A stretch of 43,168 nt of DNA from Anaerolineales bacterium (GTDB lineage: Bacteria; Chloroflexota; Anaerolineae; Anaerolineales; RBG-16-64-43). The position numbers and the translations under genes were made by a program. Of this stretch, positions 9,233-36,427 are shown in pieces. The notes below the pieces were generated by a model that was not told the origin of the DNA, did no database searches, and saw only the letters and a list, made by a program, of their open reading frames with translations. Each line of letters opens with the position of its first letter. The stretch's first letter is position 1. The DNA lies in the NCBI GenBank assembly GCA_046260075.1, contig JBJYXS010000364.1, positions 1-43,168 of the forward strand, read 5' to 3'.

Positions 9233-9233
9233 A

Positions 9234-10118
9234 CTATCCTTTGACGGACCCCTGGGTCAGCCCGGCGATGAACCGTTTTTGCAGCAGGAAGAACATCAAT
9301 GCGATGGGGAGGGCCACCACCAGCGACGCCGCCGCCATGTATTCGTAGCGCAATTGCGTTCCCGCGGCGCCGGTGATGTATTGGCGCACGCCGGCGGGAA
9401 TCGTCTTGATGCCCAGCGTGTACGAGAAGAACATCTCATCCCAGGCCGTCATGAAGATGTATATGGCGGTGGAGACGATGCCCGGGATGGCCAGCGGCAC
9501 CACGATGAAGACGAACGCCGTCAGCCGGGTGGCCCCGTCCACCATGGCCTGTTCTTCCAGGTCCACGGGAATGGAGGCGAAGAAACTCCGGAGAATCCAA
9601 ATGGAGATCGGCGTGTAGAAGCCGATGTAGAGGATGATGCCGCCGAAGTTCGATCCGACCAGGGGAATGCCGAAATTCCGCTTGATCCACATGAAAGTGA
9701 GGAACAGCGGAATGAAGAAGAGCGTGCCCGGGATCAACTGGGTCGCCAACACGGTGAGGCTGTAGGCGTCCGCGCCCCGGAAACGGTATCGAGCGAGGGC
9801 GTAAGCGGCCAATGCGGCGAACGCGGTCCCGACGATCGTCGCCACACCGACGACGGTCAGGCTGTTGGCAAAGAGGGTGTTGAACTTCAGGCTTTTCCAC
9901 ATTTCGGGATAATTCGCGAACCGCCATTCGGTCGGTAATAGGCTGCAGTACGGGCAGAGAATTTCGCCCCGGGGGGTCAGCGAGACGATCAGCATATACA
10001 GGATCGGCACGAGGATGATGCCGACCAGCACCCACAGGATGATGTTCCATAACCAATGAAGGATCATTCCCCTGGTCCTGAACGAGAACGAACGTCTTGT
10101 TACCGGCGTGGCCTTCAT
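9234..10118 (-). CDS. Carbohydrate ABC transporter permease (MalG-like)
   Basis: Polytopic membrane protein with the binding-protein-dependent transport signature region (EEQAMVDGATRLTAF). I prefer the start at ATG 10118 (MKATPV...), which is preceded by GAGGAGG, over the track start at 10190. Confidence 0.9.
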   Translation of the reverse strand: MKATPVTRRSFSFRTRGMILHWLWNIILWVLVGIILVPILYMLIVSLTPRGEILCPYCSLLPTEWRFANYPEMWKSLKFNTLFANSLTVVGVATIVGTAFAALAAYALARYRFRGADAYSLTVLATQLIPGTLFFIPLFLTFMWIKRNFGIPLVGSNFGGIILYIGFYTPISIWILRSFFASIPVDLEEQAMVDGATRLTAFVFIVVPLAIPGIVSTAIYIFMTAWDEMFFSYTLGIKTIPAGVRQYITGAAGTQLRYEYMAAASLVVALPIALMFFLLQKRFIAGLTQGSVKG

Positions 10119-10193
10119 GCTCTGTGTACCTCCTCGATGACGATTTCGAACGCAACTCCCCGGTTCCGCCCCGTCGGCGGATCCGGACACGGT

Positions 10194-11183
10194 TCATTCC
10201 GAAGTAAGGCCTTCGCGGAAGAACCGGTAATACAACCCGGTGAAGAATAAAGCGGCGATCATTATCAGCACCGATGCGGCCGCGCCGTAGCCGTACAATT
10301 GATAGCCGAAGGATTGCCGGGCGATGGTCACCATGATCAGATCCACGTACTTGCCCAGCTGGTCCGTCCCGAACAGGGTGATGGCGATGTTGTAGGGGCC
10401 GAAACCGAAGAAATTAAAGACGATTCCGAACAGCGTGGTGACCGCGATGATCGGAATGAGATAATGCCAGGTAATATAAAGGAATTTTTGAACATTATTG
10501 GCCCCGTCAATGTCGGCGGCTTCGTAGATGTCGGTCGGGATGATCTGCATCGCCGCCAGGAGCATGACCGTGGTGAACGGCAACCCGCGCCAGATGGCGG
10601 GTATGATCAACGCCGTGCGCGCGTTCTCGCCGATCAACCAGCGGATGGGCTGTTCGTTCAGGTGCAGCCAGTCGGTGATGACCCGGTTGGCCAGGCCGCC
10701 TTCCTGGGCCCAGATGAACCGCCAGATGACCCCCACGGCGAAGGTGGGGACCACCCAGGGGAGCAGGACGAGAGTCCGCGCCAGCCCCCGGCCGACGAAC
10801 TCCCGGTTCAACAGCAGGGCCAGAATCAGGCTGATGACCAGCGTGCCCACTTGCACCCACAACGTGAACCAAAACGAGTTGACGACGGATTGGGTGAGGT
10901 CGGAGATCAGCTTTTCCTCGGAACCGAGAAACAATCCGCCGAGAATCCGCTGGTAATGGTGCAAACCGACGAACGGCGAGGAAAACGGCGCCGCAAAGGT
11001 CTTTTGGGTCACATTGAGAAGCGACATGTAGATCGCTTCCCCGGTCGGAATCAGGTGCACCAGGAACATGACCAATACGGCCGGGGCGATAAACGCATAC
11101 GGAATCCGGTTGTGCCGGATGAATCGCCCGATGGATTGTTTTACGCTGCGCTTTTCCGGGGGTTCTTTTTTGCTCATCGTCAT
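10194..11183 (-). CDS. Carbohydrate ABC transporter permease (MalF-like)
   Basis: 329 aa, six-TM type, with the EAA-loop-like segment YEAADIDGANNVQKF. ATG 11177 is an alternative start. Confidence 0.9.
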   Translation of the reverse strand: MTMSKKEPPEKRSVKQSIGRFIRHNRIPYAFIAPAVLVMFLVHLIPTGEAIYMSLLNVTQKTFAAPFSSPFVGLHHYQRILGGLFLGSEEKLISDLTQSVVNSFWFTLWVQVGTLVISLILALLLNREFVGRGLARTLVLLPWVVPTFAVGVIWRFIWAQEGGLANRVITDWLHLNEQPIRWLIGENARTALIIPAIWRGLPFTTVMLLAAMQIIPTDIYEAADIDGANNVQKFLYITWHYLIPIIAVTTLFGIVFNFFGFGPYNIAITLFGTDQLGKYVDLIMVTIARQSFGYQLYGYGAAASVLIMIAALFFTGLYYRFFREGLTSE

Positions 11184-11200
11184 CCGCCTGTTAGTGGTAT

Positions 11201-11237
11201 GGGGGGGTTAGAAAAACCAAGTTCCTCTAACCCCCCC
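11201..11237. other. Intercistronic perfect 12-bp stem-loop between the SBP and permease genes
   Basis: GGGGGGGTTAGA (11201-11212), 13-nt loop, TCTAACCCCCCC (11226-11237). Confidence 0.7.
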
Positions 11238-11281
11238 ATTCGTAACTATAGGGGAAAACCGTAGAAAATCAAGCCGCGATG

Positions 11282-12700
11282 TTACGAAGCCAGCAGCTCA
11301 TCCACGGTCGCCGCCGCAGCATCCAGCCGTTGCTTGATCAGATCACGGGTGGGAGCTGCGCAGCCCGGCTCGCCCTGCACCGGGCAGGCTTCCGCCACAT
11401 CTTCCCAGATGGACGTGAAGGCGGTGTTGATGGCCGTCTCGATGGCGCCCCACTGTCCGGACGGAGCCGAGGTCTTGCCCTTCGCGGCCGCCGCGATGAA
11501 CGGAGCGTACATCGGATCGGACTTGAAGGGTTCGAGGGCTTCGTGCGTCACGGGGAGCAGACCGACGGCGTTGCCGTAGCGGATCTGCGCGTCCTTGCGC
11601 AGCAGGTATTTCACCAGCGCCCAGGCGGCGTCGTACGATTCGCAGGTGTCGAGGATGCCCAGGTCACTGCCGCCGATGAAGGTGTACTGCCCGCCGGGTC
11701 CGGCCGGGAATTCCGCCACACCGATGTCCTCTTCCGAAACCGTGTAGCCGCTGGCGGCCTGGTCGCGGATGTTGGGGACGACGTACGGGCCGGCCAGTTC
11801 GGTCGCCGCCAGGCCCTTGCCCAGGCGCTCGTCCGTGGTGGCCGAGTTCATCTCCAGCGTATCAGAAGCCGTCAGGCCGTCGGCGTACATGCTGACGTAG
11901 AATTCCACAGCATCGACCGCCTCTTCGGAGTTCAGGATGGCCTTGGTCATATCGGCATTCAGGATGTCTCCGCCGTATGCCCATATCCACTGCAGCTGGT
12001 TCTGCCAAACGTTCCAGTCGCCTTTTCCGGGGATGATCAGCGGGGCGACAACGCCCTTGGAAGGATCGTCCGGATCGACCGGAATCTGAGCGTCGCGGAT
12101 TTGCGCGAGAGCGGCCCGGTAGCTGTCGAGGTCGGCGAACGCCGTGGAGACGTCCACACCCGCCGCTTCGTAGACTTTCTTGTTGTAGTACAGAGCCCGC
12201 ACATCGCCGATCCACGGCATCGCGACCAGTGTGCCGTCGGACATACCGGTCATCCAGGAAGCGGGAACGAAGGCTTCTTCGCCGCCGACTTCCGCGATCT
12301 CTTCGGCCGTGAACTCATGCAGGCCGCCCATGGCGCCGAACGAGCCGACCCAAGTGGAGCCCATCTGGGTCACGCACGGGCCTTCACCGCCCTGTACGGC
12401 GGTGGTGATCTTGGTAAAGGCATCGCCCCAGCCGACGACTTCCGCGGTGACGTTGACGTTCGGGTACATCGCTTGGAAGGTCAACAGTTCCGCGTCAATC
12501 AATTCCTGCGGGGTGGGCCCATTGGGCATAATCCAGATCGTCACATCGCCCGTGAGATCGGGCTGCGCGGTGGCATCAACAACCACCGTTTCCTTGACAA
12601 CCTGAGTATCCGGGGTTGCAGTTGTGGCTGTGCCGCACGAAACGAGCAGCAGGCTCAGGATCGCCAGCAAGCCGAGGATAGATAGAAGTTTCTTATTCAT
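11282..12700 (-). CDS. Sugar ABC transporter extracellular solute-binding lipoprotein
   Basis: Signal peptide with lipobox LLVSCG. 472 aa family-1 SBP-like sequence, located upstream of the two permeases. Confidence 0.9.
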   Translation of the reverse strand: MNKKLLSILGLLAILSLLLVSCGTATTATPDTQVVKETVVVDATAQPDLTGDVTIWIMPNGPTPQELIDAELLTFQAMYPNVNVTAEVVGWGDAFTKITTAVQGGEGPCVTQMGSTWVGSFGAMGGLHEFTAEEIAEVGGEEAFVPASWMTGMSDGTLVAMPWIGDVRALYYNKKVYEAAGVDVSTAFADLDSYRAALAQIRDAQIPVDPDDPSKGVVAPLIIPGKGDWNVWQNQLQWIWAYGGDILNADMTKAILNSEEAVDAVEFYVSMYADGLTASDTLEMNSATTDERLGKGLAATELAGPYVVPNIRDQAASGYTVSEEDIGVAEFPAGPGGQYTFIGGSDLGILDTCESYDAAWALVKYLLRKDAQIRYGNAVGLLPVTHEALEPFKSDPMYAPFIAAAAKGKTSAPSGQWGAIETAINTAFTSIWEDVAEACPVQGEPGCAAPTRDLIKQRLDAAAATVDELLAS

Positions 12701-13988: not shown

Positions 13989-14301
13989 ATTTTATATCAG
14001 GTAATAGGCAAAGTCAATAGATGCCTTGTTGTTTCAATTCCTCTGTTTGCCCAAAATTTGGTCAAAAATACTTTTGACTTTCAAGAAAAATTTTAATATT
14101 ATGACCATGGGATTATTGATATGGTTTTTTCCCCTAAAATACAGGGGGATTTATAATTTTATATTTTTGGGTATTTTTTCTCAACATTTTACAGCAATGA
14201 TAATAATTAACATTTGTTTCATGATTTGGTCATTTTGACCACAGCCATGGGAATCTGTGTTCATTTTCGAATAAATTAAGTGGACCGTTTGTGTCCATAA
14301 A

Positions 14302-14315
14302 TGAGAACGCTCTCA
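14302..14315. promoter_or_regulatory. Second LacI-family operator-like palindrome, O2
   Basis: TGAGAACGCTCTCA has the same TGnGAACGCTCnCA pattern as O1. It lies 327 bp from O1, on the far side of the AT-rich island. Confidence 0.45.
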
Positions 14316-14457
14316 TAAGGCGTTTTTTCCATATTTGTAACAGCCGTCATGTCACAATCTGCATTCCTGGAGGATCATCCAGGTATCTTTGGAGCCGTCC
14401 GCTGACTGATCCCCACAGGTTCGCCATAGTTGTGCCTGCCGCCCCCATTGAAACGAT

Positions 14458-14489
14458 AAAAAAAGCGGATCAGCGTATTGCTGATCCGC
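14458..14489 (-). terminator. Rho-independent terminator of the second SBP gene
   Basis: On the minus strand: GCGGATCAGC, loop AATAC, GCTGATCCGC, then T7. It begins 20 nt after the stop at 14510. Confidence 0.8.
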
Positions 14490-14509
14490 TTGCCAACGAG
14501 ATGGAGTGA

Positions 14510-15940
14510 TCAGGTTTCCGGTTCCGCGAAGATCGCGGTCAGGTCCTCTTCATAGGCGGTTATTTCCGCCTCCAAATCCAAACCTTCCATGGTGCGCAAC
14601 CGATCCGCGAATGCATTGCCTCTTGCCCATGCTTGCGAATAGTTGGGCATGTACACTTCTGTGGGCAGCGCCGCCGGGCGATTGAGGTTGTCGAGGACGA
14701 CATTCAGATGGAACATCGTGGAAAAGAGGGCCGCTTTGGCGGTTTTCCAAGTTTCCTGCTTGTCTTTCGCGGCGGGAACAGCGTCATATGCCGCCGGCGT
14801 TTCCTCGTCGCCGATCAGCAGCGGATCCACAGCGGCGGTCACGAGGTATTGCAGCACGGTGAAGGCTTCCTGCGGATGCCGGCTGGTTTGCAGGATCCGG
14901 AAGGCGGCTTCCTCGATGCGGGCGCTGACGGCCCCTTCGTAGGAAGGCAGAACGGCGATATCCCACGTTCCTTCCTCCTCCAGGTAGTCGGCATATTGAA
15001 ACGGCATGACGGCCATGGCCACCTTGCCGCTGTTGAAGGGTGCGCCGCCGCCGAACGCCGGGCTTTCTTCGACCGAAGCGTTCGCCATGAACGGCGCCTC
15101 GCCCCAGATCGCATCATAGGTCCATTGCCAAGCGATCTTCCATTCTTCCGGCGTCTTGGCGGCCTTGCGACCTTCCTCCCACATGGATCCATCCGACCAG
15201 TACCCACCCCAGTAATTCGGATGGTTGTAGCCCTGCCAGGTGAATCCGTATTGGCGGATATCTCCGCCGTCGAAACCGGGATCACCTGCATGGTTTCCGG
15301 CGCCGTCGATGGTCATCAGACGGGCGAGTTCCGCCAGGGTGTCCCAGCTCCACACGGCTTCTTGCCCGTCCGGCATGAGATGGCCTTTTCCGTACTGTGC
15401 CGGGGGATACGCATACCCGTACCGGTTGAACAATGAGACGTTGTAGAACACCACCGACGGATTCACCATAAACGGCAGGGCCGTCGTCTTGCCCTCCGGT
15501 TGATAGATATCCAACAAAGCGGCGGGGAAAACGGAGGTGTCGAAACCGGACATCGCAATGTACGGGTCGAGATCCAGCCACTGATCAGAAAAAGCGCTCG
15601 CCGCGACCATACCGGTCGGCCCGACGATATCCGGCCCCTCTCCCGCTTCGATCCGGGCGGCCAGGGTATCCCGGGCCAGCCCGCTGTAGACGGTCCCCAG
15701 CGTCAGTCGGATGTTGTTTTCCCTGCCGACAGTGGCATTAAACTCATCGACAACGGCCTGTTGGGCGTTTTGCCGGTTCGAATCGATTTCCATCCCCAGA
15801 CCGGTGAACCATTGGATTTCGACGGTCTCCGCCGTCTGGGCTGTCGTTGCGGTGGCGGCGGGGGTTTCCGCGGACGGTTTGCAGGAAGCCATCGCTGCTC
15901 CAACCGCCAGCACGCCGCATACTGTGAGATACCTGCGCAT
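14510..15940 (-). CDS. Extracellular solute-binding lipoprotein (family 1, sugar or oligosaccharide type), monocistronic
   Basis: I prefer the start at ATG 15940 (MRRYLTVCGVLAVGAAMASCK, lipobox), preceded by AAGGAG. The track start at 16045 adds a non-signal extension. Confidence 0.85.
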   Translation of the reverse strand: MRRYLTVCGVLAVGAAMASCKPSAETPAATATTAQTAETVEIQWFTGLGMEIDSNRQNAQQAVVDEFNATVGRENNIRLTLGTVYSGLARDTLAARIEAGEGPDIVGPTGMVAASAFSDQWLDLDPYIAMSGFDTSVFPAALLDIYQPEGKTTALPFMVNPSVVFYNVSLFNRYGYAYPPAQYGKGHLMPDGQEAVWSWDTLAELARLMTIDGAGNHAGDPGFDGGDIRQYGFTWQGYNHPNYWGGYWSDGSMWEEGRKAAKTPEEWKIAWQWTYDAIWGEAPFMANASVEESPAFGGGAPFNSGKVAMAVMPFQYADYLEEEGTWDIAVLPSYEGAVSARIEEAAFRILQTSRHPQEAFTVLQYLVTAAVDPLLIGDEETPAAYDAVPAAKDKQETWKTAKAALFSTMFHLNVVLDNLNRPAALPTEVYMPNYSQAWARGNAFADRLRTMEGLDLEAEITAYEEDLTAIFAEPET

Positions 15941-16315
15941 TAACGATCTCCTTTCCCATACCGTGCCGTCTGCAAGCATTCGGTCCGTATCCGGCGCCGG
16001 ATCCGATGGAACGGAAACGGCTTCCGCCGCCGCGGATGATGGCAATTCGTCCCGCCGGGGAATCGGCCCCTTCAGGGCGGATCATCCGCAGGAAGGCCGC
16101 CTGATGCGAACCGCACAATTATAATACAGAGAATCCGTGGTCCCTTGTATATTGCCGGCGGTCCGGGATGGCCGGCGGAGTATGCAAAACCGCTGCGGCG
16201 CCCCTCCGTCAAGGGATGATCCCCGCCGGCGGCCAATCGTCCTTGTGCCCTCCGTCAGGCGGTTTTTTTCGCCGTTTTCTCCGCCCGACTCCCGCAGAGG
16301 TTTTTCGGCGTTCTC

Positions 16316-25748: not shown

Positions 25749-25821
25749 GCCGAGATAGCTCAGTTGGTAGAGCACGCGACTGAAAATCGCGGTGTCCCCA
25801 GTTCGATTCTGGGTCTCGGCA
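25749..25821 (+). tRNA. tRNA-Phe (GAA)
   Basis: Cloverleaf read by eye: acceptor GCCGAGA/TCTCGGC, D-arm GCTC-AGTTGGTA-GAGC, anticodon loop CTGAAAA, T-arm CCCAG-TTCGATT-CTGGG. No encoded CCA. Confidence 0.95.
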
Positions 25822-25842
25822 CCTCCGCGGAAGCGGGATTTT

Positions 25843-25914
<72 letters not shown>

Positions 25915-25949
25915 CTATAAACGCCCCGGAAACGGGGCGTCTGTTTCTC

Positions 25950-26020
25950 GGCGACGTCGCCAAGTGGCAAGGCAGGGGTCTGCAAAACCCCCACCGTGGG
26001 TTCGAATCCCACCGTCGCCT
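25950..26020 (+). tRNA. tRNA-Cys (GCA)
   Basis: Acceptor GGCGACG/CGTCGCC, anticodon stem-loop GGGGT-CTGCAAA-ACCCC, T-arm GTGGG-TTCGAAT-CCCAC. Confidence 0.95.
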
Positions 26021-27519: not shown

Positions 27520-28761
27520 TCAGCGGTGCAGGCGCGGCATGCGTTTCTTCCAGGCGGTGGGGATGATCTTGTCGAGCGCATCGTCGGCCGTGATGATCCC
27601 TTGCAGGCGGTTCTGCTCATCGACCACCGGAACGGCCTGCAGGTTGTACTTGGAAACGGCGTGCGCCGCGTCGTCCTGGCTGTCTTCCGGCCGGATGGAG
27701 ACCACGCGCCCATGCATGAATTCCGTCACCGCGGTGGCGGGATCCGCCAAGACAAGATCCCGCAGGGAGAACACTCCCAACAGGCGGCCGCCTTCATCGG
27801 TGACGTAAATGTAGAATAGGTTCTGGATCTTCGGCCCCTCGCGCCGCAGCACCGCCATGGCCTGGGCGGCGGTGAGTTTGGGCGGAACGGCCAGGAATTC
27901 GGTGTTCATCAGGCCGCCGGCCGAATCCTCGGGGTAGGTGAGGAGCTTGCGCACGTCCGCCGCCTCCTCACGGCCCATCAGATTCAGCAGCCCCTGCGAA
28001 CGGTCCTTCGGGAGTTCGGCCAGCAGGTCAGCCGCCTCGTCGGGGGCCATCTCCTCCAGCACGTCGGCCACTTTCTCGTCCGGAAGGTGTTCCACCAGAT
28101 CGGCCTGCACTTCCGGATCGGTCTCCTCGAGCACGTCGGCCAGCTTTTCCACGACCATCTGGTCCACCAGTTGATCGCTGCTGTTCTGACTCGCCAGATC
28201 GCGAAGGATGTCGGCCAGGTCCGCCGGGTGCAGATCGGCGAGCTTCTCGCCGGCGACTTTCAGCCGCAAGGGGCTCTGTCCGGGCAGCATCTCCACGTTT
28301 TCCCAGGAAATCGTTCCCGCGGTGGGTCGGCCGCCGCGGAAGCCGAAGAGGTTCCGGAGCCAGCTCCGGCTTCCATCGCCGCAAACGGCGACATTGGCGA
28401 TGTAAATGTCGTTGTCGATGCGGGTCAGTTCGACATCCTTCACCCGCACCGCGCGCACGCCGTTGGTGTCGATGACCGGCTTGCCGAGCACGTCGCGCGC
28501 CAGGAACAGATCTTCCTTGGCGGGTTTGTAGGACGGCAGGTCCCTTAGTCGGTATTTTAGAGGGATGGCGGGGGCGATCAATACCGTCGCGGCCGATACC
28601 GGGATCAGCATCTGATGCCCGTTAGTTCGGACGACCATCGCGACGATCAGCGGATGGGCGATGGGATGTTTTTCGGCGGCGATCAGGTCGGTGAGGATGC
28701 CGATCTGCCGGCCGCTGACGTCGGCTATCGGGCGGCCAATGAGTTCGCGGACATATGCCAT
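27520..28761 (-). CDS. Soluble PRC-barrel / MgtE N-terminal domain / tandem CBS protein; an MgtE cytosolic sensor module with no transmembrane domain
   Basis: ATG 28761 (MAYVRELIGRP...) is preceded by GGAGGAGG. There are two PRC-like segments, then the MgtE_N-like LHPADLADIL...EEMAPDEAADLLAELP...LLTYPEDSAGGLMNTEF, then a CBS pair. The protein ends after ...DKIIPTAWKKRMPRLHR without any TM helices. Confidence 0.85.
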   Translation of the reverse strand: MAYVRELIGRPIADVSGRQIGILTDLIAAEKHPIAHPLIVAMVVRTNGHQMLIPVSAATVLIAPAIPLKYRLRDLPSYKPAKEDLFLARDVLGKPVIDTNGVRAVRVKDVELTRIDNDIYIANVAVCGDGSRSWLRNLFGFRGGRPTAGTISWENVEMLPGQSPLRLKVAGEKLADLHPADLADILRDLASQNSSDQLVDQMVVEKLADVLEETDPEVQADLVEHLPDEKVADVLEEMAPDEAADLLAELPKDRSQGLLNLMGREEAADVRKLLTYPEDSAGGLMNTEFLAVPPKLTAAQAMAVLRREGPKIQNLFYIYVTDEGGRLLGVFSLRDLVLADPATAVTEFMHGRVVSIRPEDSQDDAAHAVSKYNLQAVPVVDEQNRLQGIITADDALDKIIPTAWKKRMPRLHR

Positions 28762-28781
28762 GCCTTGTCCTCCTCCAGCCC

Positions 28782-28815
28782 AAAACAAAGCCCCCGCGTC
28801 AGATGAAGCGGGGGC
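28782..28815 (-). terminator. Intrinsic terminator inside the 5' leader, ending about 20 nt before the start codon of the MgtE_N/CBS gene
   Basis: On the minus strand: CCCCCGC, loop TTCATCTGAC, GCGGGGG, then CTTTGTTTTGGG. The SD GGAGGAGG follows immediately. Confidence 0.6.
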
Positions 28816-28984
28816 AGGCTGGTACGATCACGGCCTGGCCGGCGTCTCAACAGACGGCAGGAAGGTTCTGCAATCGAGGACTCTCGGGTTGGTCCGGGTC
28901 AAGCGAAAGATTGTTGTCCATGGTGTCGGCTCTTTTGCTGATGACCGACGTGCGCTCCTGGGTTGCGGATTTCTTTTCGGAGCG

Positions 28985-29013
28985 AATATACCCCCGGATA
29001 TGGGCGGTGTCAA
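28985..29013 (-). promoter_or_regulatory. Sigma70-like promoter driving a ~215-nt leader
   Basis: On the minus strand: TTGACA (29013-29008), 17-nt spacer, TATATT (28990-28985). Confidence 0.55.
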
Positions 29014-29154: not shown

Positions 29155-30858
29155 CTATATCGCTTTCAGGTTGAGTTCCGCTAGATACTTCTCCCGGTTG
29201 GCGCCGCGCGCGATCTTGCCGGAGCTGGTTTTCAACAACCAGCCGCGGTCCACCACCCGGACCTGGCGCAGGGCGATGTCGGATCCGCGGGTCACCCGCC
29301 GCCGGATCTCCTCCGCCAGTTGCTCTCCGTCGCGCTCACCCCCATCGGCGGCGGTTTCCGGAGAATCCCGCTCCGCCACGATCACGACGTTTTCGGTTCC
29401 CATTTCCTCGCTGTACACTCCGAAGGCGACCACCCGTCCGGGATGCACACCCGGCACCTCCGAGGCCAGCAATTCCAGGTCCTGGGGATACACGTTCTTT
29501 CCCCCCACGATGATGAGGTCCTTCTTCCGTCCGGTGATGTACACCTCGCCGCCGGCCAGGTACCCGAGGTCGCCGGTGAGGAACCAGCCCTCGTGGAAGG
29601 CCTTCGCGGTCAGGTCGGGCCTGCGGTAATACTCCGTCAGCATGCAATCGCTGCGCAACATCACCTCCCCCAAATGGCGTTCGGGAAGTTCCGCGCGCGC
29701 ATCATCGACGATCCGCACCGCGGCGTTCTCCACCGGGGGGCCGCAGGAGAGCATGTTCATCGCTTCCTCACCGTCTTGCGACGGGCGGGCGACCCGGTCG
29801 ACGAGCAGCCCGCGCTGGCTGACCGCGTCGACCGTCACCGGCGCCCCGATCCCGCCTTGGGTGACGGCGAAAACGTTCTCGGCCATCGCGTAGCATGTGG
29901 CCAGCGCGCTCTCCCGCAACCCGAATCCCCGGAACCGGTCCAGGAACTTGCGGTGGCTCTGGTAATGCATCGGTTCGGAGCAGTTGATGATCGCCCGCCA
30001 GGAGGAAAGATCCACATCCTCCAGCTGGCGGTCGCGGATTTTCTGCGCGCAGAAGTTATAGGCGAAGTTCGGCAGCCAGGAGAGGGTCCCGCGGTGAGCC
30101 GACACCGCCTGCAGCAATTTGTACGGCGCGCGGACCCAATCGAAGGGCGACATCAGGACGAGCGGGATTCCCTCCAGAATCGGCAGCAGAAAGCCCGCGA
30201 TCAACCCCATATCGTGATAGAGCGGCAGCCAGGAAACGATCGTATCCTCCGGGCGCAGCCGGACGGCCCGGCCGTATACATCCAACTGCCGGAAGACGGC
30301 GCGATGGGAAAGCGCCACTCCCTTCTGCAAACCCGTGGTGCCGGAGGAATGCTGCAGCAGTACGATGTCGCCGGGTTCGCGTTCCCGGCCGCGCATCGCG
30401 GAAAAATCCGGGGCGGGGCAAGTAGCAACGTCCGTCGTCTGCAGCACGCTGCGCACCGGCCCGCCGGACGGGATGGCGTCCTGCACTTCATTCAGAAACT
30501 CCGGATAGGTCACCACCGCAGCCGGCTGGGTTACGGAAAATAATGATTTAAGCGACCGGCGGTAGGATTCCGGCGAGAGTTTTTCGGTGAGAAACGGCAT
30601 GATGGATGGAATCGCCCCGTGCAACACCGCGCCGAAGAACGACTCCGCCAACGCCTCGGAATGTTGGAGGATGAGGATGACGACTTCCCCGGGCTGCACG
30701 CCCGCTTTTTGCAGCGCGTCCGCGTAACCGGCGGCTCCGCAGACCAGATCCCGGTAGGACATCGCCCGCTCGGGTGTCCGCGGGTGCATCCAGTGGACTG
30801 CGGTTTGTTCCGGGGAACGGGTGTAGAGGTCTTCCAGACGCGCAAAAAAGGTGGTCAC
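29155..30858 (-). CDS. Adenylate-forming enzyme, fatty-acyl-AMP/acyl-ACP ligase (FAAL)-like
   Basis: 567 aa. LLQHSSGTTGLQKGV (A3 motif), YHDMGL, GWFLTGDLGY, GRKKDLIIVGGKNVYPQDLE and the C-terminal KTSSGKIAR. The GTG start overlaps the ACP stop (GTGA at 30855-30858). Confidence 0.85.
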   Translation of the reverse strand: MTTFFARLEDLYTRSPEQTAVHWMHPRTPERAMSYRDLVCGAAGYADALQKAGVQPGEVVILILQHSEALAESFFGAVLHGAIPSIMPFLTEKLSPESYRRSLKSLFSVTQPAAVVTYPEFLNEVQDAIPSGGPVRSVLQTTDVATCPAPDFSAMRGREREPGDIVLLQHSSGTTGLQKGVALSHRAVFRQLDVYGRAVRLRPEDTIVSWLPLYHDMGLIAGFLLPILEGIPLVLMSPFDWVRAPYKLLQAVSAHRGTLSWLPNFAYNFCAQKIRDRQLEDVDLSSWRAIINCSEPMHYQSHRKFLDRFRGFGLRESALATCYAMAENVFAVTQGGIGAPVTVDAVSQRGLLVDRVARPSQDGEEAMNMLSCGPPVENAAVRIVDDARAELPERHLGEVMLRSDCMLTEYYRRPDLTAKAFHEGWFLTGDLGYLAGGEVYITGRKKDLIIVGGKNVYPQDLELLASEVPGVHPGRVVAFGVYSEEMGTENVVIVAERDSPETAADGGERDGEQLAEEIRRRVTRGSDIALRQVRVVDRGWLLKTSSGKIARGANREKYLAELNLKAI

Positions 30859-31109
30859 TGCGGGGTTTGCCTGGCTTGGATCACCGCCGCCAACTCCGAC
30901 AGCGTATCGAAGGTCTGGGCGTTCAGCTCCGTATCATCGATGTGCACGCCGAAGGTGTCTTCCACGAACAGCGAGAGATCCACCAGGTGGAAGGAATCGA
31001 TCAATCCGGAGGAAATCAGTTTATCGTCCGGGGCGATGGCGCGCTGGGGTTGTTTGAGCACCTGTTCGGCGATATAGGCGGCCAACTGCGATTCGATTTC
31101 TTGGGTCAT
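30855..31109 (-). CDS. Acyl/peptidyl carrier protein
   Basis: 84 aa. The phosphopantetheine-attachment context SSGLIDSFHLVDL sits at about residue 38, and the protein has an acidic helical character. Confidence 0.8.
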   Translation of the reverse strand: MTQEIESQLAAYIAEQVLKQPQRAIAPDDKLISSGLIDSFHLVDLSLFVEDTFGVHIDDTELNAQTFDTLSELAAVIQARQTPQ

Positions 31110-31124
31110 CGGATTCTTGGCTCC

Positions 31125-32108
31125 TCAGGGTAGGTTCGGTCCGATCAGCTCCCGCCGGGCGCCGTCCAGCACCTGCAGCGCGGTCAGGTTGCGGATCATC
31201 CATCCGCTCCATTTGGAGTCGGGAAGGTCGAAGAAGTAGTTGTGGTCGCCGGGCGCCTGGGTGAGGTGGAAACCATCCTTGCTCAACCCGTGATAGCGCA
31301 CCGTCTGCACCGCTCCCCAGAAATTCCACAACGGGATGTCGTATTCCCAAGCCAGCTGGGCGATCAGCGCGTTGATCCGGTGGCCGCCTTCGAGATTGTC
31401 GGCCTTGGTCGCCACGACCGGCACCACCCCCTGGCCGACCGTGTACTCGATCACCTGGCGCAGATAAGTTTCGTACTTGACCACGTCCCCATCCCAGGCT
31501 TCCTCGAAACTGATCAGCGCCAGGCTGGGATTGTTCAGCCGCAGCTCGCACGCCAGCGGACTTTCCGACGATTCGCAAAAATCCGGATCCGCCCGCAGCG
31601 GATTTAAAGCGGCCGCCACGTTCAATCCCCCCTTCACCGCCAGGCTTTGACGGCCGAAGGAGCCTGCAAACCAGTCGATCGTGGTCTGCAGATCCGCATA
31701 CGGCCCGAGCCGGTACTTCTCCGGATCCTCGTAGCCGGCCAGGAAGAAGGTGGTGATGTTCTGACAATCGCCGATCTTGGAAAACACGCGCTCGTCGCGC
31801 CCCATCGCGGCGCCGGTTTGGAAAATCGCCTGAGCCCGGCCGGCGAAGGATGGAACCGCCGGGTACGTTTGCCATTCGTCCCCTTCCGGGGAGGGACGCA
31901 GGGTGGCCGTGGGGGTCGCCGTCGAACGGCCGGTCGGCGTGGACGCCGACGATTCCAGAGCCGCCGTCGAACCCGCGGACGGTGTGGCGGCCGGATCGGA
32001 GGGCTCGGCGCCGGGAGTCGCGCCGGCCGCCCGTCCTTCGCAAGCGGTCAGTATCATCAACGCTGCTCCCCAGACGGCGGCGGTGCGCGGCAAACGGTTA
32101 GCGGGCAT
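31125..32108 (-). CDS. Lipoprotein with an SGNH/GDSL-like fold in which block I reads GDC (Cys in place of Ser)
   Basis: Lipobox ILTAC followed by an S/T/P/A-rich linker. Block I-like FSKIGDCQN, block III-like VATKADN, block V-like SKDGFHLT (DxxH). Confidence 0.6.
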   Translation of the reverse strand: MPANRLPRTAAVWGAALMILTACEGRAAGATPGAEPSDPAATPSAGSTAALESSASTPTGRSTATPTATLRPSPEGDEWQTYPAVPSFAGRAQAIFQTGAAMGRDERVFSKIGDCQNITTFFLAGYEDPEKYRLGPYADLQTTIDWFAGSFGRQSLAVKGGLNVAAALNPLRADPDFCESSESPLACELRLNNPSLALISFEEAWDGDVVKYETYLRQVIEYTVGQGVVPVVATKADNLEGGHRINALIAQLAWEYDIPLWNFWGAVQTVRYHGLSKDGFHLTQAPGDHNYFFDLPDSKWSGWMIRNLTALQVLDGARRELIGPNLP

Positions 32109-33204
32109 TCTTCTCTTTTACAATCTCCATCATCAACCGCTCCGCCAGCAGGATTTCCCCCTCCGGTGTGCGGTGAATGGCGCTGTTGGTGAACTCCTCC
32201 GCCGGAACCAAGTCCCAGTAATCGAAACAGGTCACCTGATGGATCAGGCACCATTCCGCCAGCAAGGAGCGGTACGCATCATACGCCCAGCGCGGGTAGA
32301 AAAAATTATACCGGATGTCGCTGTTGGCTCCCCGGCTGATGTACACCGGTTCGTTGACGATCCACAGGGGAACCTCGCCCGCCAACGCCCGGCCGGCCGC
32401 GAGCACATCGAAGGCCAGGTCGTCCGGGTTAAGTTCCGGCGGCTGCAGTCCGTAGAAATCCGTTTCCTCCTCCAGATCCTCCTGCGGCGGATCGTATCTC
32501 TCCGGGATCGCCTGATCCACGCCGGTGGCGGCCCATAAGAATCCGTACAACTGCAGGCGGATCCAATCCGCCAACGACCGCCGCTCGCCCACCAGAGTCC
32601 GGTCCCACACCGTCGGTGTGATCAGCCGCGGATCGTCGGGATCCGACGCCAACCCATATTCCGCGATCAGTTCCCGCACCACCGCGGCATTGTGCTGCAG
32701 GATCGGCGAAGCCAATTGCTTGGACGGCGGGAGCGACTCCAGGGTGATCAGCCAGATGACAAGATCGGGATCGTACCGCATGGCATAGCGCAGCATCATC
32801 AGATCTTTCGTCGTCGACATCGTCGGGTACCCGAGGTTGTAGACATGAACCGCGCCGCCGCTTTCCCGGGTGATGTGTGCGGCCAACGTCTCCTCCGGAT
32901 CCAACAGAAACCCCCAGGTGGACGAATCCCCGATCAGCACCACGCGGAACGCATCCGGCTTCCGCGGGGCGGAGATTTCGTGTGCGGCGAACATCGCCTC
33001 CAGGTTGAACAGGCTCAGGTTGTAATCGGACGCGGGGTCTTCGCCGTACGGCAGCCGCACGCGCCCCGGGACCAGCCGGTTGTAGATGGAGATCCGTCCC
33101 AGCGCGGGAAGCAGGTCGACGGCGGCGAACAGCCCGTTGAGGGCCAGGAACAGAACCAGCGCCTTGACCAGCACGTTGCGCAGAAAGCGGTTGCGTTCAG
33201 ACAT
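32098..33204 (-). CDS. Membrane-anchored SGNH hydrolase/acyltransferase, DltD/AlgJ-like
   Basis: N-terminal TM helix (VLVKALVLFLALNGLFAAV). Block I VVLIGDSSTWG, and a C-terminal NSAIHRTPEGEILLAERL block V-like His region. It overlaps the next gene by 11 nt. Confidence 0.65.
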   Translation of the reverse strand: MSERNRFLRNVLVKALVLFLALNGLFAAVDLLPALGRISIYNRLVPGRVRLPYGEDPASDYNLSLFNLEAMFAAHEISAPRKPDAFRVVLIGDSSTWGFLLDPEETLAAHITRESGGAVHVYNLGYPTMSTTKDLMMLRYAMRYDPDLVIWLITLESLPPSKQLASPILQHNAAVVRELIAEYGLASDPDDPRLITPTVWDRTLVGERRSLADWIRLQLYGFLWAATGVDQAIPERYDPPQEDLEEETDFYGLQPPELNPDDLAFDVLAAGRALAGEVPLWIVNEPVYISRGANSDIRYNFFYPRWAYDAYRSLLAEWCLIHQVTCFDYWDLVPAEEFTNSAIHRTPEGEILLAERLMMEIVKEKNAR

Positions 33205-33222
33205 GCGGAGAAACCGTCCTTA

Positions 33223-34665
33223 TCATCTGAAAATCCCGAACAGGCGGAGGAACACATCCGCCGAAGCCGCCGGGCTGGGGAGGGCGAACCAAACCCAGCC
33301 GAGGACGACGAAGTGGAACGTCGCCAGTATGGACGCCGCCGTGTAGGCCTTCTTCCACGCCGGCCGGCCCTCCATGCGCGGCATCCAACTCCGACTCCAT
33401 TCCCCCCAGCGGTTGTGCACGAACAGCCCGGCTCCGTGCCACAGCCCCCAGATCAGGAAATTCCACGACACGCCGTGCCACAGGCCGATCAGGGCCATCG
33501 TCGAAAACTGGCCGGCCAGGATGATGAGCCACATCGGGATCCGCCGCGGAGCAGAGCGCAGGGCGCGGGTCAGGGGGTTGAAAAAGTAGGAACGGAACCA
33601 TTGCGCCAGGGTGATATGCCAGGAATTCCAGAAGGCGGTGAGGTTCGGCTGCGTGTACGGGCGGTTGAAATTTTCGGGAAGGGCGATGCCCGCCCATTGC
33701 CCCAATCCCAGGGCGATGTCGGTGTAGCCCGAAAAATCAAAATAGATCCGCAGGGCGTAGGCGTACAGGAACAGCCATAACCATCCGGCGTCCGTCGTTT
33801 GCGCGGCGAGGGATACGTTCAAGGCCATCACCGCCAACCCATCGGCCAGTACGAACTTTTTAAAGATCCCCACCAGGATTCGTTGACCGCCCGGCAGGAA
33901 CGAATCGGCCGGACGGCTCGCGCCGGAGTGCAGGCCTTTGAGAAACCGGTCCACCCGGTCGATCGGCCCGGCCGTGACGGCCGGGTAAAAGACGACGTAG
34001 GTGAGAAAGTCGCGCAGCGAACAATCGGGCAACCGGCCCGTCATCCGGTCCCGCAGGGCATGAACCAGGCGGAAGGCGATGTAGGAAAAACCCAGCCAGC
34101 GGATATCCAGCGGCGAGGCCAGTCCGGGATCCTGTCCGTTCATCCGGCGCAGGACCGCCGCGGCCGCCTGGGCCAGGCCGTCCGTCTTCAACACCACCAG
34201 CAGGGCAAGGACGATGAAGACCGCCGCCGCAAGAGTCCGCCGGCCGGACCGTACGCTGCGCAATACGGCAGCCAGCACCAGCAGGAAAAGCAGCGCCGAA
34301 ACAACCCGGCCGATCTCCGGAGGGCGGCCCGGAATCAGGACGGCGGAGGAACCAAGATAGCGCGTCGCCGCCAAGCCCAGGATAAGTGCCGCGGCGACTG
34401 CGGCCGTCCCCGCATCCGCGCCGGTCACTCTCCAACGGGCGGGTTCCGGCGGGTTGTCTTTCCGGGCGGTAAGCGCCCAGATCAACACGGTCAGCCCGAT
34501 GGAAGCGGTCGGCAGCCAGAAATCGAGATGGCGGACGGGCAACGCCGGCTGCAGCGCATATACGGCCAGCAGGCTGGCGATGAAAAGAATCCATCGGCGG
34601 GCCCGGGGTATTCCGCCCGCCGCCAGGGAAACCGCCGCCAGTACGAAGATGTCGGTTAGTGTCAT
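33223..34665 (-). CDS. MBOAT-family membrane-bound O-acyltransferase (DltB/AlgI-like)
   Basis: 480 aa, polytopic. FWNSWHITLAQWFRSYFFNPL and GLWHGVSWNFLIWGLWHGAG are the conserved MBOAT His blocks. Confidence 0.9.
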   Translation of the reverse strand: MTLTDIFVLAAVSLAAGGIPRARRWILFIASLLAVYALQPALPVRHLDFWLPTASIGLTVLIWALTARKDNPPEPARWRVTGADAGTAAVAAALILGLAATRYLGSSAVLIPGRPPEIGRVVSALLFLLVLAAVLRSVRSGRRTLAAAVFIVLALLVVLKTDGLAQAAAAVLRRMNGQDPGLASPLDIRWLGFSYIAFRLVHALRDRMTGRLPDCSLRDFLTYVVFYPAVTAGPIDRVDRFLKGLHSGASRPADSFLPGGQRILVGIFKKFVLADGLAVMALNVSLAAQTTDAGWLWLFLYAYALRIYFDFSGYTDIALGLGQWAGIALPENFNRPYTQPNLTAFWNSWHITLAQWFRSYFFNPLTRALRSAPRRIPMWLIILAGQFSTMALIGLWHGVSWNFLIWGLWHGAGLFVHNRWGEWSRSWMPRMEGRPAWKKAYTAASILATFHFVVLGWVWFALPSPAASADVFLRLFGIFR

Positions 34666-34696
34666 AAACGGGGTGGGAACTGCCGACCGGAGATTC

Positions 34697-34831
34697 TCAG
34701 AATCCCTGGTAGATCCACTGCGGGGATTGGTCCGCCGTGAATACCAGGATGAAAACGGCCATCAGGCACAGGGCCAATGCGCAGAGGTTCTCCCGCGAAA
34801 ACAGCCACCGGCCGATCCGGCCGAAGATCAT
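34697..34831 (-). CDS. DltX-like single-TM microprotein ending in the hexapeptide WIYQGF (44 aa; 51 aa if ATG 34852 is used)
   Basis: MIFGRIGRWLFSRENLCALALCLMAVFILVFTADQSPQWIYQGF*. Its ATG overlaps the TGA of the upstream lipoprotein gene (ATGA at 34828-34831), and it ends 31 nt upstream of the MBOAT gene. In the track it is buried in the C-terminus of the 119-aa Arg-rich ORF 34697-35056. Confidence 0.5.
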   Translation of the reverse strand: MIFGRIGRWLFSRENLCALALCLMAVFILVFTADQSPQWIYQGF

Positions 34832-35196
34832 TGATATCCGCACATTCTCCATTCGCCGCCCTCTTTCAAGACCTTGTACGTGCGGTCGGCCAGGTCGATC
34901 TCCTGGATCTCGCCGTTGTAATCCAGCGTGGCTTTGCCCGTGCATTCGACCAGCTGGTATTCCCCTTCGGCGCCCGCCACCTGACAGGCGATGTTTTCCA
35001 GCGTGGCCGGATACATCGCAAACGTGTCGACGTCCGTGAGGGCGCCGGTTTCCCACGCCGCGCAGGAAACGGTCACGGCTTTGGTGGCGTCTTTATCCAC
35101 CAATGCGCGGAAATAGGCTTCCACGGCTTTCTCCGGGCCGGCGGATCCGCCGCAGGCAGCGAGGAGCAGGAGGATCAGCAGAATGGATTTTCTCAT
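34828..35196 (-). CDS. Small lipoprotein (NTF2/DUF4878-like), first gene of the cluster
   Basis: MRKSILLILLLLAACGG lipobox, followed by AVEAYFRALVDKD. 122 aa from ATG 35196; the track start at 35214 adds 6 residues. Confidence 0.6.
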   Translation of the reverse strand: MRKSILLILLLLAACGGSAGPEKAVEAYFRALVDKDATKAVTVSCAAWETGALTDVDTFAMYPATLENIACQVAGAEGEYQLVECTGKATLDYNGEIQEIDLADRTYKVLKEGGEWRMCGYQ

Positions 35197-35283
35197 TGTG
35201 TCTCTCTTCCACAAGGCCGGACGATCCGGCGGGATGAGATCGTTGACCGATCGGAATTATTGTAACATCCCCAAACACCGCAG

Positions 35284-36321
35284 TCAGACTTCTTCCAAGA
35301 TACGCGCCAACACATCCGCCAGCTCCTCCGGCTGGTCGAAGAATACGTCGTGGGCCGATTCTTCGAACCAGATCATCCGCTTTCCCTGCGGAGCATCCAG
35401 ACCTTCGTAATACGCGCGCGTCAGCTCCGCAGGGGCATTGTAATCGTAGCGCCCCGAGAGGAAGTACACCGGCACGTCGATCCGCGGCGCACTCTCGAAA
35501 AAATCCACTTCCATTAATTCCGGCCACAGCCGGCGCAACGAGTTTCCGCTGCCCAACGGCCACCAGGCGGCGTCGGCCAATGAGTATTCGGGGGCCTCGA
35601 GCAGCATCCGCAGTTCGTGCCTGTAACTCTTGGCCGTGCGGTATACGCCCCCGAAGGCCAGCAGCCAACGCCTTTGGGTCGTCAAATCGTCGTACCAGCT
35701 CCCGGCCCGGTAGGCCGGATCGATTCCGGCCAATTCCTCCGCGGCCTCCCGGTTGCCCGTCTCGAGCGCGATACGCCGGACATACTCCAACGACAGCTTC
35801 TCTCCTTCGGCGTAATCCACGATCTGGCCCACGCCGATGTAGCCGAGGAAATCCTCCGGACGGTCCTGGACGGTCCACAATCCCAAAACGGTTCCCCACG
35901 AAAATCCCATCAGATAGATCTTCCGGCCGCCGAACCTATCCCGCAGGTAAGCCACCAATTCCCGGGCGTCACTCCGCATCCGATCCAGGGTCAGGCCGGT
36001 ATCGCCCGCATTGAGGGTGTTGGTCTTTCCGGAGCCGCGCTGATCCCAACCCACCACCGTGAAATGATCCTCCAAGGCGGGGCATTGAATCCGCAGCTTG
36101 GCCAGGTTGGCGCTCCCCGGCCCGCCGTGCAGGAACAGCAGGACGGGATTCCCGGCGTTGCTTCCCCGGATAGAGATCCACTGCCGCAAGCCGCCCAGTT
36201 CCACCTGCGTCAGTTCGTTGATCGACGCCGGACCCGGATGGGCGAGCGGTGCGCGTCCGCAGCGGAAAGACAGCCCGCCCAGCACCGCCGCGGCAGCCAA
36301 CAGCAACAATCCGATCCACAT
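35284..36321 (-). CDS. Alpha/beta hydrolase (proline-iminopeptidase-like), signal- or TM-anchored
   Basis: ATG 36321 (MWIGLLLLAAAAVLGG) is preceded by GAAGGAGAA. HGGPG oxyanion motif and nucleophile elbow GFSWG. Confidence 0.8.
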   Translation of the reverse strand: MWIGLLLLAAAAVLGGLSFRCGRAPLAHPGPASINELTQVELGGLRQWISIRGSNAGNPVLLFLHGGPGSANLAKLRIQCPALEDHFTVVGWDQRGSGKTNTLNAGDTGLTLDRMRSDARELVAYLRDRFGGRKIYLMGFSWGTVLGLWTVQDRPEDFLGYIGVGQIVDYAEGEKLSLEYVRRIALETGNREAAEELAGIDPAYRAGSWYDDLTTQRRWLLAFGGVYRTAKSYRHELRMLLEAPEYSLADAAWWPLGSGNSLRRLWPELMEVDFFESAPRIDVPVYFLSGRYDYNAPAELTRAYYEGLDAPQGKRMIWFEESAHDVFFDQPEELADVLARILEEV

Positions 36322-36427
36322 CCTGTTTCTCCTTCGACCTTTCATACATGGATTCCAAAAAGAAACATCATCCGCTTAACTCTGCTTCGCATCCTCCCCG
36401 TACTCCCGGCGCCCGGCGTTTTTGGGG

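Follow-up and report, generated by a model that had tools for sequence, protein, structure and literature searches.

The DNA analysed here, a contig of 43,168 nucleotides (nt) from an Anaerolineales bacterium (hereafter the window), carries on its minus strand a compact operon of seven open reading frames (ORFs) which is the subject of this work. The operon runs from position 35196 to position 29155 and encodes, in this order, a lipoprotein (lipo1), a microprotein, a membrane-bound O-acyltransferase (MBOAT), a first SGNH protein (SGNH1), a second SGNH protein that is itself a lipoprotein (SGNH2), a carrier protein (CP) and an adenylase of the fatty-acyl-AMP ligase (FAAL) type (Table 1). The successive junctions measure -4 (ATGA), 31, 18, -11, 15 and -4 (GTGA) nt. 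An earlier note on this DNA had described the seven packed genes and likened them to the dltXABCD operon, in a host which it took to be other than a Firmicute; all coordinates, junctions and quoted motifs were reproduced exactly, and the host is indeed a member of the Chloroflexota. The stop codon of the CP gene overlaps the start codon of the FAAL gene, and the spacing of both genes, 15 nt into the CP followed by the GTGA overlap, appears compatible with translational coupling. A consensus scan, the only method applied to promoters, detected a weak sigma-70-like candidate upstream of lipo1 (9/12 consensus matches), and a strong promoter-like site was found only past the FAAL stop codon, before mgtE. 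Terminator-like hairpins are not enriched within the operon (12 versus 7.1 +/- 2.6 expected from shuffled sequences). We consider it probable that these genes encode a carrier-protein-dependent acyl relay, in which the MBOAT, the microprotein and the SGNH proteins follow the logic of DltXABCD and are fed by a FAAL instead of DltA. This reading is based on observed features: the genes present, their families and folds, the conservation of catalytic positions, the signals of topology and the conserved synteny.

Table 1 Components of the operon and the promoter candidate that precedes it. The last column gives the presence of each component in 56 loci with at least 0.9 kb of sequence upstream and 6 kb downstream; the FAAL was counted as present when found at most 10 kb away
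Feature	Coordinates	Strand	Length and sequence features	Presence in the 56 loci
lipo1	34828..35196	-	122 aa; lipobox LLAAC; first gene of the operon	53/56, usually directly upstream of the microprotein
Microprotein	34697..34831	-	44 aa; C-terminus WIYQGF	55/56
MBOAT	33223..34665	-	480 aa	
SGNH1	32098..33204	-	368 aa; LIGDSS	56/56, directly after the MBOAT
SGNH2 lipoprotein	31125..32108	-	327 aa; lipobox LTAC; IGDCQN	48/56
Carrier protein (CP)	30855..31109	-	84 aa; GLIDSFHLVDL	41/56
Adenylase (FAAL)	29155..30858	-	567 aa; GTG start; LLQHSSGTTGLQKGV; LPLYHDMGL	42/56
Sigma-70-like promoter candidate (weak)	35259..35287	-	Upstream of lipo1; CTGACT-17-TACAAT with TG extension	

A Pfam and NCBIfam scan recovered the domains which the earlier note had assigned to the MBOAT, the CP and the adenylase. 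For the MBOAT this is PF03062 (E = 2.5e-19), and the comparison of its family profile with the PDB retrieved DltB only (6bug, E = 1.4e-55; 8jem). Three residues of DltB, His336, His289 and Tyr128, have been assigned to the active site and the aromatic cluster of this protein (PMC11035591); they align to His397, His350 and Tyr195 of the MBOAT, which are invariant in its family, and His397 is the putative catalytic residue, together with His350 and Tyr195. The MBOAT has some 68 more residues than DltB at its N-terminus.

Other bacterial systems also combine an MBOAT with one or more extracytoplasmic SGNH proteins and with a Tyr hexapeptide placed after a transmembrane (TM) helix and a Pro, namely PatA/PatB, AlgI/J/F/X and WssH/I. 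In these systems the motif is fused to the MBOAT's own C-terminal end after two extra TM helices, whereas here it is borne by the microprotein; moreover, their donor is acetyl-CoA and they lack both a CP and an adenylase, whereas here both a CP and a FAAL are present in the operon. The MBOAT of the window ends in ...FLRLFGIFR. Since the core homologous to DltB stops 18 residues before this C-terminus, there is no room for two extra helices and a fused motif, and a terminus of the type aromatic-x-Y-x-x-aromatic was found in 0/79 of its Chloroflexota orthologues. Four MBOATs encoded by plasmids of Bacillus thuringiensis, Deinococcus, Leptospira and Bacteroides were used as controls. All of them end in PF[LI]YF[QR]F; their neighbours are of the SGNH, DHHW or DUF1574 type, and none is a carrier protein or an adenylase. 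As the fused motif is present in the four controls and in none of the 79 orthologues, the MBOAT of the window is of the split, DltB-like kind that the proposed Dlt logic implied. The lack of a fused motif and the presence of a CP set the system apart from the PatAB/Alg/Wss type, and both the MBOAT and the SGNH proteins fall outside the alginate, cellulose and PatAB acetylation families. The four controls (L086:5722-7128, L087:5728-7131, L088:1590-2981 and L089:5611-7098, from Bacillus thuringiensis, Deinococcus actinosclerus, Leptospira interrogans and Bacteroides finegoldii) are uncharacterised acetylation-type systems, and no two of them share a partner family, these being DHHW, a protein annotated as 'FtsQ', DUF1574 and SGNH.

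The start of the microprotein is ambiguous. The ATG at 34831 gives the 44-aa product listed in Table 1 and the ATG at 34852 a product of 51 aa; the latter start has the better Shine-Dalgarno-like sequence (AAGAGG, 8 nt upstream) and is the one called in the source assembly, while the members of the family are typically 38-39 aa long. In 77/82 loci the MBOAT is immediately preceded by an ORF ending in WIYQGF (once in WIYQGY); counted by species, the microprotein comes before the MBOAT in 75 of the 80 Chloroflexota genomes. Of the five loci that lack it, four have their MBOAT on or close to the end of a contig, while the fifth (L062) has no such explanation. An alignment of 38 members shows no variation at A17, P36, W38, I39, Y40, Q41 and G42. 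The codons of the motif vary synonymously (three codons for Ile, two for Tyr, two for Gln, four for Gly and two for Phe) while the peptide is fixed, and selection therefore acts on the protein. When 1.84 billion representative proteins were scanned in full with HMMER, 101 clusters of microproteins at 50% identity were obtained; they measure 36-88 aa except for one of 165 aa. The match reaches the C-terminus in all but one of the 101 clusters, and the most divergent members retain W[IV]YQ[GN]F. The microprotein is thus a real and strongly conserved gene.

The layout of the microprotein consists of a basic N-terminus, a single TM helix and a tail of ~13 residues that finishes in P-x-W-I-Y-Q-G-F-COOH. 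Its topology signals suggest an N-in/C-out orientation, in which the tail would be extracytoplasmic, and Tyr40 is proposed, by analogy with DltX, as the residue that accepts the acyl group. The DltX of B. thuringiensis starts with MERLKEIWSRP, continues with a TM helix and then GFHDTNTSTFIYNEF, and has the tail FIYNEF (PMC5541007); that of Streptococcus thermophilus has the tail FLYFGF (PMC11035591). The microprotein shares with DltX its length class, the N-in/C-out layout, the distance of the Tyr from the C-terminus and a C-terminal motif of the type [FW]-I-Y-x-x-F, but its first motif residue is a Trp where the DltX examples have a Phe. It lies outside the Pfam family of DltX (DUF3687), with no match even at E <= 10.

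The two extracytoplasmic SGNH-fold proteins that had been predicted for this operon are both supported by structural models, although their GDSL matches are weak in family scans (for SGNH1, PF13472 with E = 3.7e-5). In SGNH1, the residues G91-D92-S93 and His343 are invariant. Its AlphaFold2 (AF2) model has an SGNH fold (pLDDT 91.2, pTM 0.90) anchored by a TM helix at residues 2-28. A Foldseek search with this model returned generic SGNH esterases, and the near-full-length matches to proteins of similar size are DltD structures (6pfx, 3bma, 6o93 and 7dxm), in alignments of ~355-375 columns, gaps included. By its position and architecture SGNH1 would be analogous to DltD, a resemblance seen in the predicted fold and not in the sequence. 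The comparison of the SGNH1 profile with the PDB gave WD40 matches only, and these were rejected as spurious.

SGNH2 is made up of the lipobox, a low-complexity linker and an SGNH-fold core. In this protein the nucleophile position of block I is occupied by the Cys of a G-D-C triad in 55/55 sequences, and block V (D278-x-x-H281) retains D278 in 50/55 and H281 in 52/55. The AF2 model (pLDDT 83, with the core above 90) resembles TesA-like SGNH folds in Foldseek (E ~1e-3, TMt ~0.6). No significant similarity between SGNH1 and SGNH2 was detected by hhalign. SGNH2 is proposed as a second extracytoplasmic acyl-handling enzyme. Several genomes have two or three lipoprotein paralogues of SGNH2 within the cluster, including forms of ~690 aa with PD40 beta-propeller repeats (L045:13427-16495, L051:13541-16540, L079:14388-17492 and L073:14550-16622). 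As for lipo1, it has four further conserved Cys and sub-threshold family matches only (the C-terminal domain of Rv0361, E = 0.002; DUF6692, E = 0.017).

The nature of the SGNH proteins bears on one alternative interpretation, in which the operon would have a mainly hydrolytic or remodelling role, for instance the editing of lipids or lipoproteins by both SGNH proteins while the MBOAT re-acylates a membrane lipid. Eukaryotic MBOATs do acylate lipids, the SGNH models best match esterases and thioesterases such as TesA, and the number of SGNH2 paralogues varies. Nevertheless, DltD and PatB are also esterase-like SGNH-fold transferases, the only role known to date for an invariant C-terminal Tyr motif borne by a separate microprotein is the shuttling of acyl groups between an MBOAT and an SGNH transferase, and a dedicated CP and FAAL speak for the supply of a specific acyl group. 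We therefore regard a mainly hydrolytic role as very unlikely.

The adenylase belongs to the AMP-binding family PF00501 (E = 1.5e-50). Its best NCBIfam matches are FAAL models (PRK09192, 1.2e-106; FadD32; FadD28), as are its best matches in the PDB: the Escherichia coli FAAL 3pbk (7e-70), 7r7g, which is a FAAL that loads a polyketide synthase (PKS), the Legionella protein 3kxw and FadD32. DltA is absent from the best 60 of the 94 PDB matches (E <= 1e-10). The insertion specific to FAALs, of ~23 residues (~347-369), aligns without gaps to that of 3pbk and has no counterpart in E. coli FadD; the motif LPLYHDMGL and a C-terminal SSGK lysine are also present. The orthologues of the adenylase are 48-81% identical. 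Taken together, these sequence features indicate that the adenylase is a genuine FAAL and not a DltA, as the earlier note had supposed. The position which we take to be that of the Asp that binds the alpha-amino group (motif FDxS) in DltA and in the A domains of non-ribosomal peptide synthetases (NRPS) is here presumably the Tyr-His of acyl-activating enzymes. As judged from this alignment, the replacement of the Asp by Tyr-His would argue against D-alanine and other alpha-amino acids, and an aliphatic or fatty acid is the likeliest cargo.

The CP has the phosphopantetheine-binding domain PF00550 (E = 3.9e-7). It matches the DltC models (E = 1.6e-5 and 1.3e-4) no better than it does generic acyl carrier protein (ACP) models. 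Ser39 is its putative phosphopantetheine site; it is conserved in 46/47 sequences, F40, L42, D44 and E50 are conserved in 47/47, and the helix downstream of the site is conserved as well. The FAAL is proposed to load this adjacent carrier protein.

The hypothesis of a genuine D-alanylation system of the Chloroflexota has to be considered in this context. The adenylase would then activate D-Ala or another amino acid, which would be esterified to a polymer similar to teichoic acid. The only solved relatives of the MBOAT are DltB proteins, the motif and the architecture of the microprotein resemble those of DltX, and dlt operons are known beyond the Firmicutes, for instance in Dickeya and Pectobacterium (PMC5541007). 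Yet the MBOAT and the CP score far under the cut-offs of the DltB and DltC equivalogs, the operon has two extra lipoproteins and its gene order is different. Moreover, the features of the adenylase (the insertion, the motif LPLYHDMGL, the best PDB and NCBIfam matches, with no DltA among the 60 best of the former) are of the FAAL type, and our reading of the alignment, aided by family knowledge, places a Tyr-His where an Asp would bind the alpha-amino group. D-alanylation thus appears highly improbable. Given that the adenylase is no DltA and that the scores stay under the DltB and DltC thresholds, the operon was not filed as a dlt operon.

The conservation of the operon was studied in related genomes. 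A scan with the MBOAT profile, restricted to one genome per species, yielded at least 569 relatives, the best 80 of which were kept. All of these 80 belong to the Chloroflexota (46-68% identity). By record name they are Anaerolineae, Thermoflexales and Ca. Aquidulcis; the NCBI taxonomy places Thermoflexales in Thermoflexia and Ca. Aquidulcis in Ca. Limnocylindria. A metagenome contig in ENA carries an identical MBOAT within the same order of genes, and those relatives of the window MBOAT that bear an organism name come from metagenome-assembled genomes of Anaerolineales and further Chloroflexota. For each of the two proteins MBOAT and SGNH1, at least 4,500 homologues were retrieved. Outside the Chloroflexota, plasmid searches yielded only carrier-less MBOATs with a fused motif; the one other find was Leptolinea, itself a member of the Chloroflexota. 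According to tblastn searches with the seven window proteins, the collinear core lipo1-microprotein-MBOAT-SGNH1 is near-universal. The seven-gene arrangement is kept in related genomes, with exactly the order of the window in 29/56 loci. The distance from the CP to the FAAL is 0-83 nt in 36 of 40 loci, and the extra genes found between SGNH2 and the CP are mostly further SGNH2-like lipoproteins, some of them fused to PD40 repeats. Since the arrangement recurs in dozens of species-level genomes, it goes far beyond what chance would produce.

In the Dlt and PatAB systems, the acyl group is passed from a donor to the MBOAT, to the Tyr of a hexapeptide (FxYxxF), to the Ser of the SGNH protein and finally to a polymer (PMC12148441). 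By analogy with this chemistry we infer every transfer of the FAAL-fed relay, as well as its cargo and its acceptor. In a first step, the cytoplasmic FAAL would adenylate a carboxylic acid without an alpha-amino group, the likeliest being aliphatic or fatty, and would load the acyl group as a thioester on the phosphopantetheine of Ser39 in the CP. The acyl-CP would then dock on the cytoplasmic face of the MBOAT which, with His397 and His350, would conduct the acyl group along its tunnel and place it on Tyr40 of the microprotein, outside the membrane. The tail with its acyl-Tyr would swing to SGNH1, where Ser93 would take the acyl group and deliver it to an envelope acceptor. Finally, SGNH2 (by means of Cys114) and its paralogues might relay the acyl group via a thioester to a further acceptor, or else edit or remove it. 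lipo1 would be an accessory protein.

Because the loading enzyme is of the type that activates fatty acids, the operon probably carries a different acyl group from that of Dlt, likely a lipid-like one. A more precise scenario, which we put forward as a tentative possibility, is that a fatty acyl group with a medium or long chain is exported, passing from the acyl-ACP through the MBOAT, the microprotein Tyr, the Ser-SGNH and a thioester on the Cys-SGNH to a wall glycopolymer, to peptidoglycan or to lipoproteins. In that case, the operon would be a bacterial, carrier-protein-fed counterpart of the lipidation of Wnt, Hedgehog or ghrelin, and it would provide a previously unknown way to lipid-anchor or hydrophobise the envelope of these filamentous bacteria. 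Porcupine, HHAT and GOAT would resemble it in that they are MBOATs which carry a fatty acyl group from the cytoplasmic side across the membrane. However, these enzymes draw on acyl-CoA, work with neither a microprotein nor an SGNH partner and transfer the acyl group directly to the protein, and the homology is at the level of the superfamily only.

Several observations weigh against the FAAL-fed relay or against parts of it. The single NCBIfam match of the MBOAT is TIGR04091 (DltB; E = 4.4e-63), for which it reaches 214 bits against a cut-off of 375 bits, and therefore the MBOAT is not a DltB equivalog. The CP is below the cut-off of every named ACP and DltC model, and the FAAL matches of the adenylase in NCBIfam also stay below the curated cut-offs. 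The microprotein has no relevant match in profile searches of Pfam (E <= 10), NCBIfam or the PDB, and hhalign aligns nothing but the six-residue motif to the DltX of B. thuringiensis (E = 0.07). Since the profile searches are empty and the motif alone can be aligned, homology with DltX cannot be claimed: the resemblance would be one of motif and topology, from which homology by sequence does not follow. Similarly, SGNH1 has no Pfam match to DltD and no sequence-level similarity to it, its TMq values with the DltD structures are modest (0.35-0.46) and its block V reads S-A-I-H instead of D-x-x-H. Another difficulty concerns the cargo. McyG, which is among the PDB matches of the adenylase, is presumably a FAAL-clade enzyme that activates a non-fatty acid; since enzymes of this clade can activate non-fatty acids too, the class of the cargo is not secure. 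Finally, 14/56 loci have no CP or FAAL within 10 kb, and in a cultured strain, Leptolinea sp. HRD-7, one 212-kb replicon carries the MBOAT core, SGNH1 and the FAAL at three separate places, with no CP ORF upstream of the FAAL gene. At the loci without CP and FAAL, unrelated genes come after the core.

These last cases bear directly on another explanation, according to which the FAAL and the CP belong to a separate lipid or secondary-metabolite pathway and merely lie beside an acetylating MBOAT-SGNH system that depends on acyl-CoA. This hypothesis stays alive because of the 14 loci devoid of a nearby CP and FAAL, and the dispersal of the genes in Leptolinea points in the same direction. Furthermore, typical bacterial FAALs have been described as always found in a PKS/NRPS context (eLife 2021 study, PMC8460268). 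Nevertheless, neither the window nor the sampled locus inserts showed a PKS, an NRPS, a ketosynthase or any other consumer of acyl-ACP, and the genes conserved beside the FAAL are those of the MBOAT, the SGNH proteins and lipoproteins. The FAAL does not accompany the MBOAT in this genome alone, as the earlier note had envisaged for a borrowed pathway: the CP-FAAL pair lies downstream and on the same strand in ~75% of the species-level genomes, in at least three lineages and down to an MBOAT identity of ~46%. The spacing of the CP (15 nt) and the GTGA overlap are compatible with translational coupling, and the MBOAT, which has no fused motif, is of the split DltB/DltX arrangement that accompanies a carrier-protein donor. 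A separate pathway therefore seems unlikely, and the three alternatives are less well supported than the relay fed by the FAAL.

The Leptolinea replicon deserves some additional description. The lipo1-microprotein-MBOAT genes lie in L085 (AP024711.1), where the sites are 8422-10401 and 10400-11850; further sites are L083 8911-10020 and L090 4995-6677. SGNH1 is 120 kb and the FAAL 35 kb away from lipo1-microprotein-MBOAT, which is followed by a block of tandem repeats with units of ~200-370 bp. The lipo1, the microprotein (47 aa, BCY19582.1, ending in WIYQGF) and the MBOAT of this strain are all annotated as 'hypothetical protein'.

If the operon encodes the proposed FAAL-fed relay, it has five roles in common with DltXABCD: an adenylase, a stand-alone carrier protein, an MBOAT, a single-pass microprotein and a TM-anchored SGNH protein. 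The MBOAT is homologous to DltB, has the same His/His/Tyr positions and likewise carries no fused shuttle motif. The two systems differ in that the adenylase is here a 567-aa FAAL with its insertion and there a DltA of ~500 aa, that the CP is a generic ACP and not a DltC equivalog, that two extra lipoproteins are present here, one of them a Cys-SGNH, and that the genes follow the order lipo1-X-B-D-SGNH2-C-A instead of X-A-B-C-D. Their distribution is also different, since DltXABCD is found in Firmicutes and in Dickeya, Pectobacterium and Bordetella, whereas the present operon belongs to the Chloroflexota, in which, to our knowledge, teichoic acid is not known. The other obvious comparison is with the FAAL + ACP modules (those of E. 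coli and Legionella, FadD32/FadD28, the cyanobacterial lipopeptide starters), which have in common with the operon the family, the insertion, the motif YHDMGL and the adjacent CP, which is the presumed acceptor. These modules, however, feed a PKS, an NRPS or acyltransferases of lipid synthesis, whereas the sole plausible consumer within this cluster is an MBOAT that would export the acyl group.

Dlt has until now been treated as the sole bacterial MBOAT/SGNH route with a carrier protein and a separate microprotein that shuttles the acyl group on a Tyr, and a 2025 paper states that the non-Dlt MBOAT/SGNH pathways lack both a carrier protein and a DltX-like microprotein (PMC12148441). Two surveys of FAALs, the eLife 2021 study (PMC8460268) and one from 2026, mention neither MBOAT nor Dlt, and neither a FAAL-fed version nor any MBOAT system of the Chloroflexota turned up in our literature search. 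The operon would be a second family of this kind, widespread, in a different phylum and with a different class of activating enzyme. This would imply that the acyl-Tyr shuttle is a general and modular device for diverse acyl groups, beyond D-alanine and acetate, that FAALs have a role in envelope biology which is independent of PKS and NRPS, and that the poorly understood envelope of the Chloroflexota bears an unknown acyl modification. The reading also offers names and testable functions for lipo1, the microprotein, SGNH1 and SGNH2, which are 'hypothetical' in nearly all sources examined, and an SGNH enzyme with a Cys in place of the Ser is mechanistically interesting by itself.

The other genes of the window have unrelated functions; they encode a ribulose-phosphate epimerase, a hexokinase, sensor kinases, a sugar ABC transporter along with a LacI regulator, a GH94 phosphorylase, an acetyl-CoA synthetase, CorA, MgtE, PadR and three tRNAs. 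No teichoic-acid genes are present in the 43 kb. The absence of envelope-polymer synthesis genes on either side suggests that the operon is a self-contained unit. A secreted alpha/beta-hydrolase (Abhydrolase_1) is encoded on the minus strand at 35284-36345 and ends 87 nt upstream of lipo1; as its position is conserved only in the closest relatives (L005 and L006), it probably does not belong to the unit.

On the other side of the operon, the region upstream of mgtE, the gene of a Mg2+ transporter (27520-28788), contains at 28765-29013 on the minus strand a near-consensus promoter (TTGACA-17-TATATT) and a leader of ~200 nt. The leader ends just before the gene in a GC-rich hairpin followed by a U-run (folding z-score -1.75) and looks like an attenuator or a riboswitch; an M-box was considered and rejected, as no Rfam match was obtained at the gathering threshold or at E <= 1. 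Three tandem ORFs at 44-1954 were also discarded, because they look like antisense artefacts of a GC-rich gene. The three tRNA genes are clustered on the plus strand at 25749-26020, between DUF1846 and corA. The GC content dips to 0.48 at 14001-15000, compared with ~0.61 elsewhere, between the gene for the LacI regulator and the 3' portion of an ORF of 511 aa (14510-16045, minus strand) which has no Pfam match and looks like a secreted solute-binding lipoprotein.

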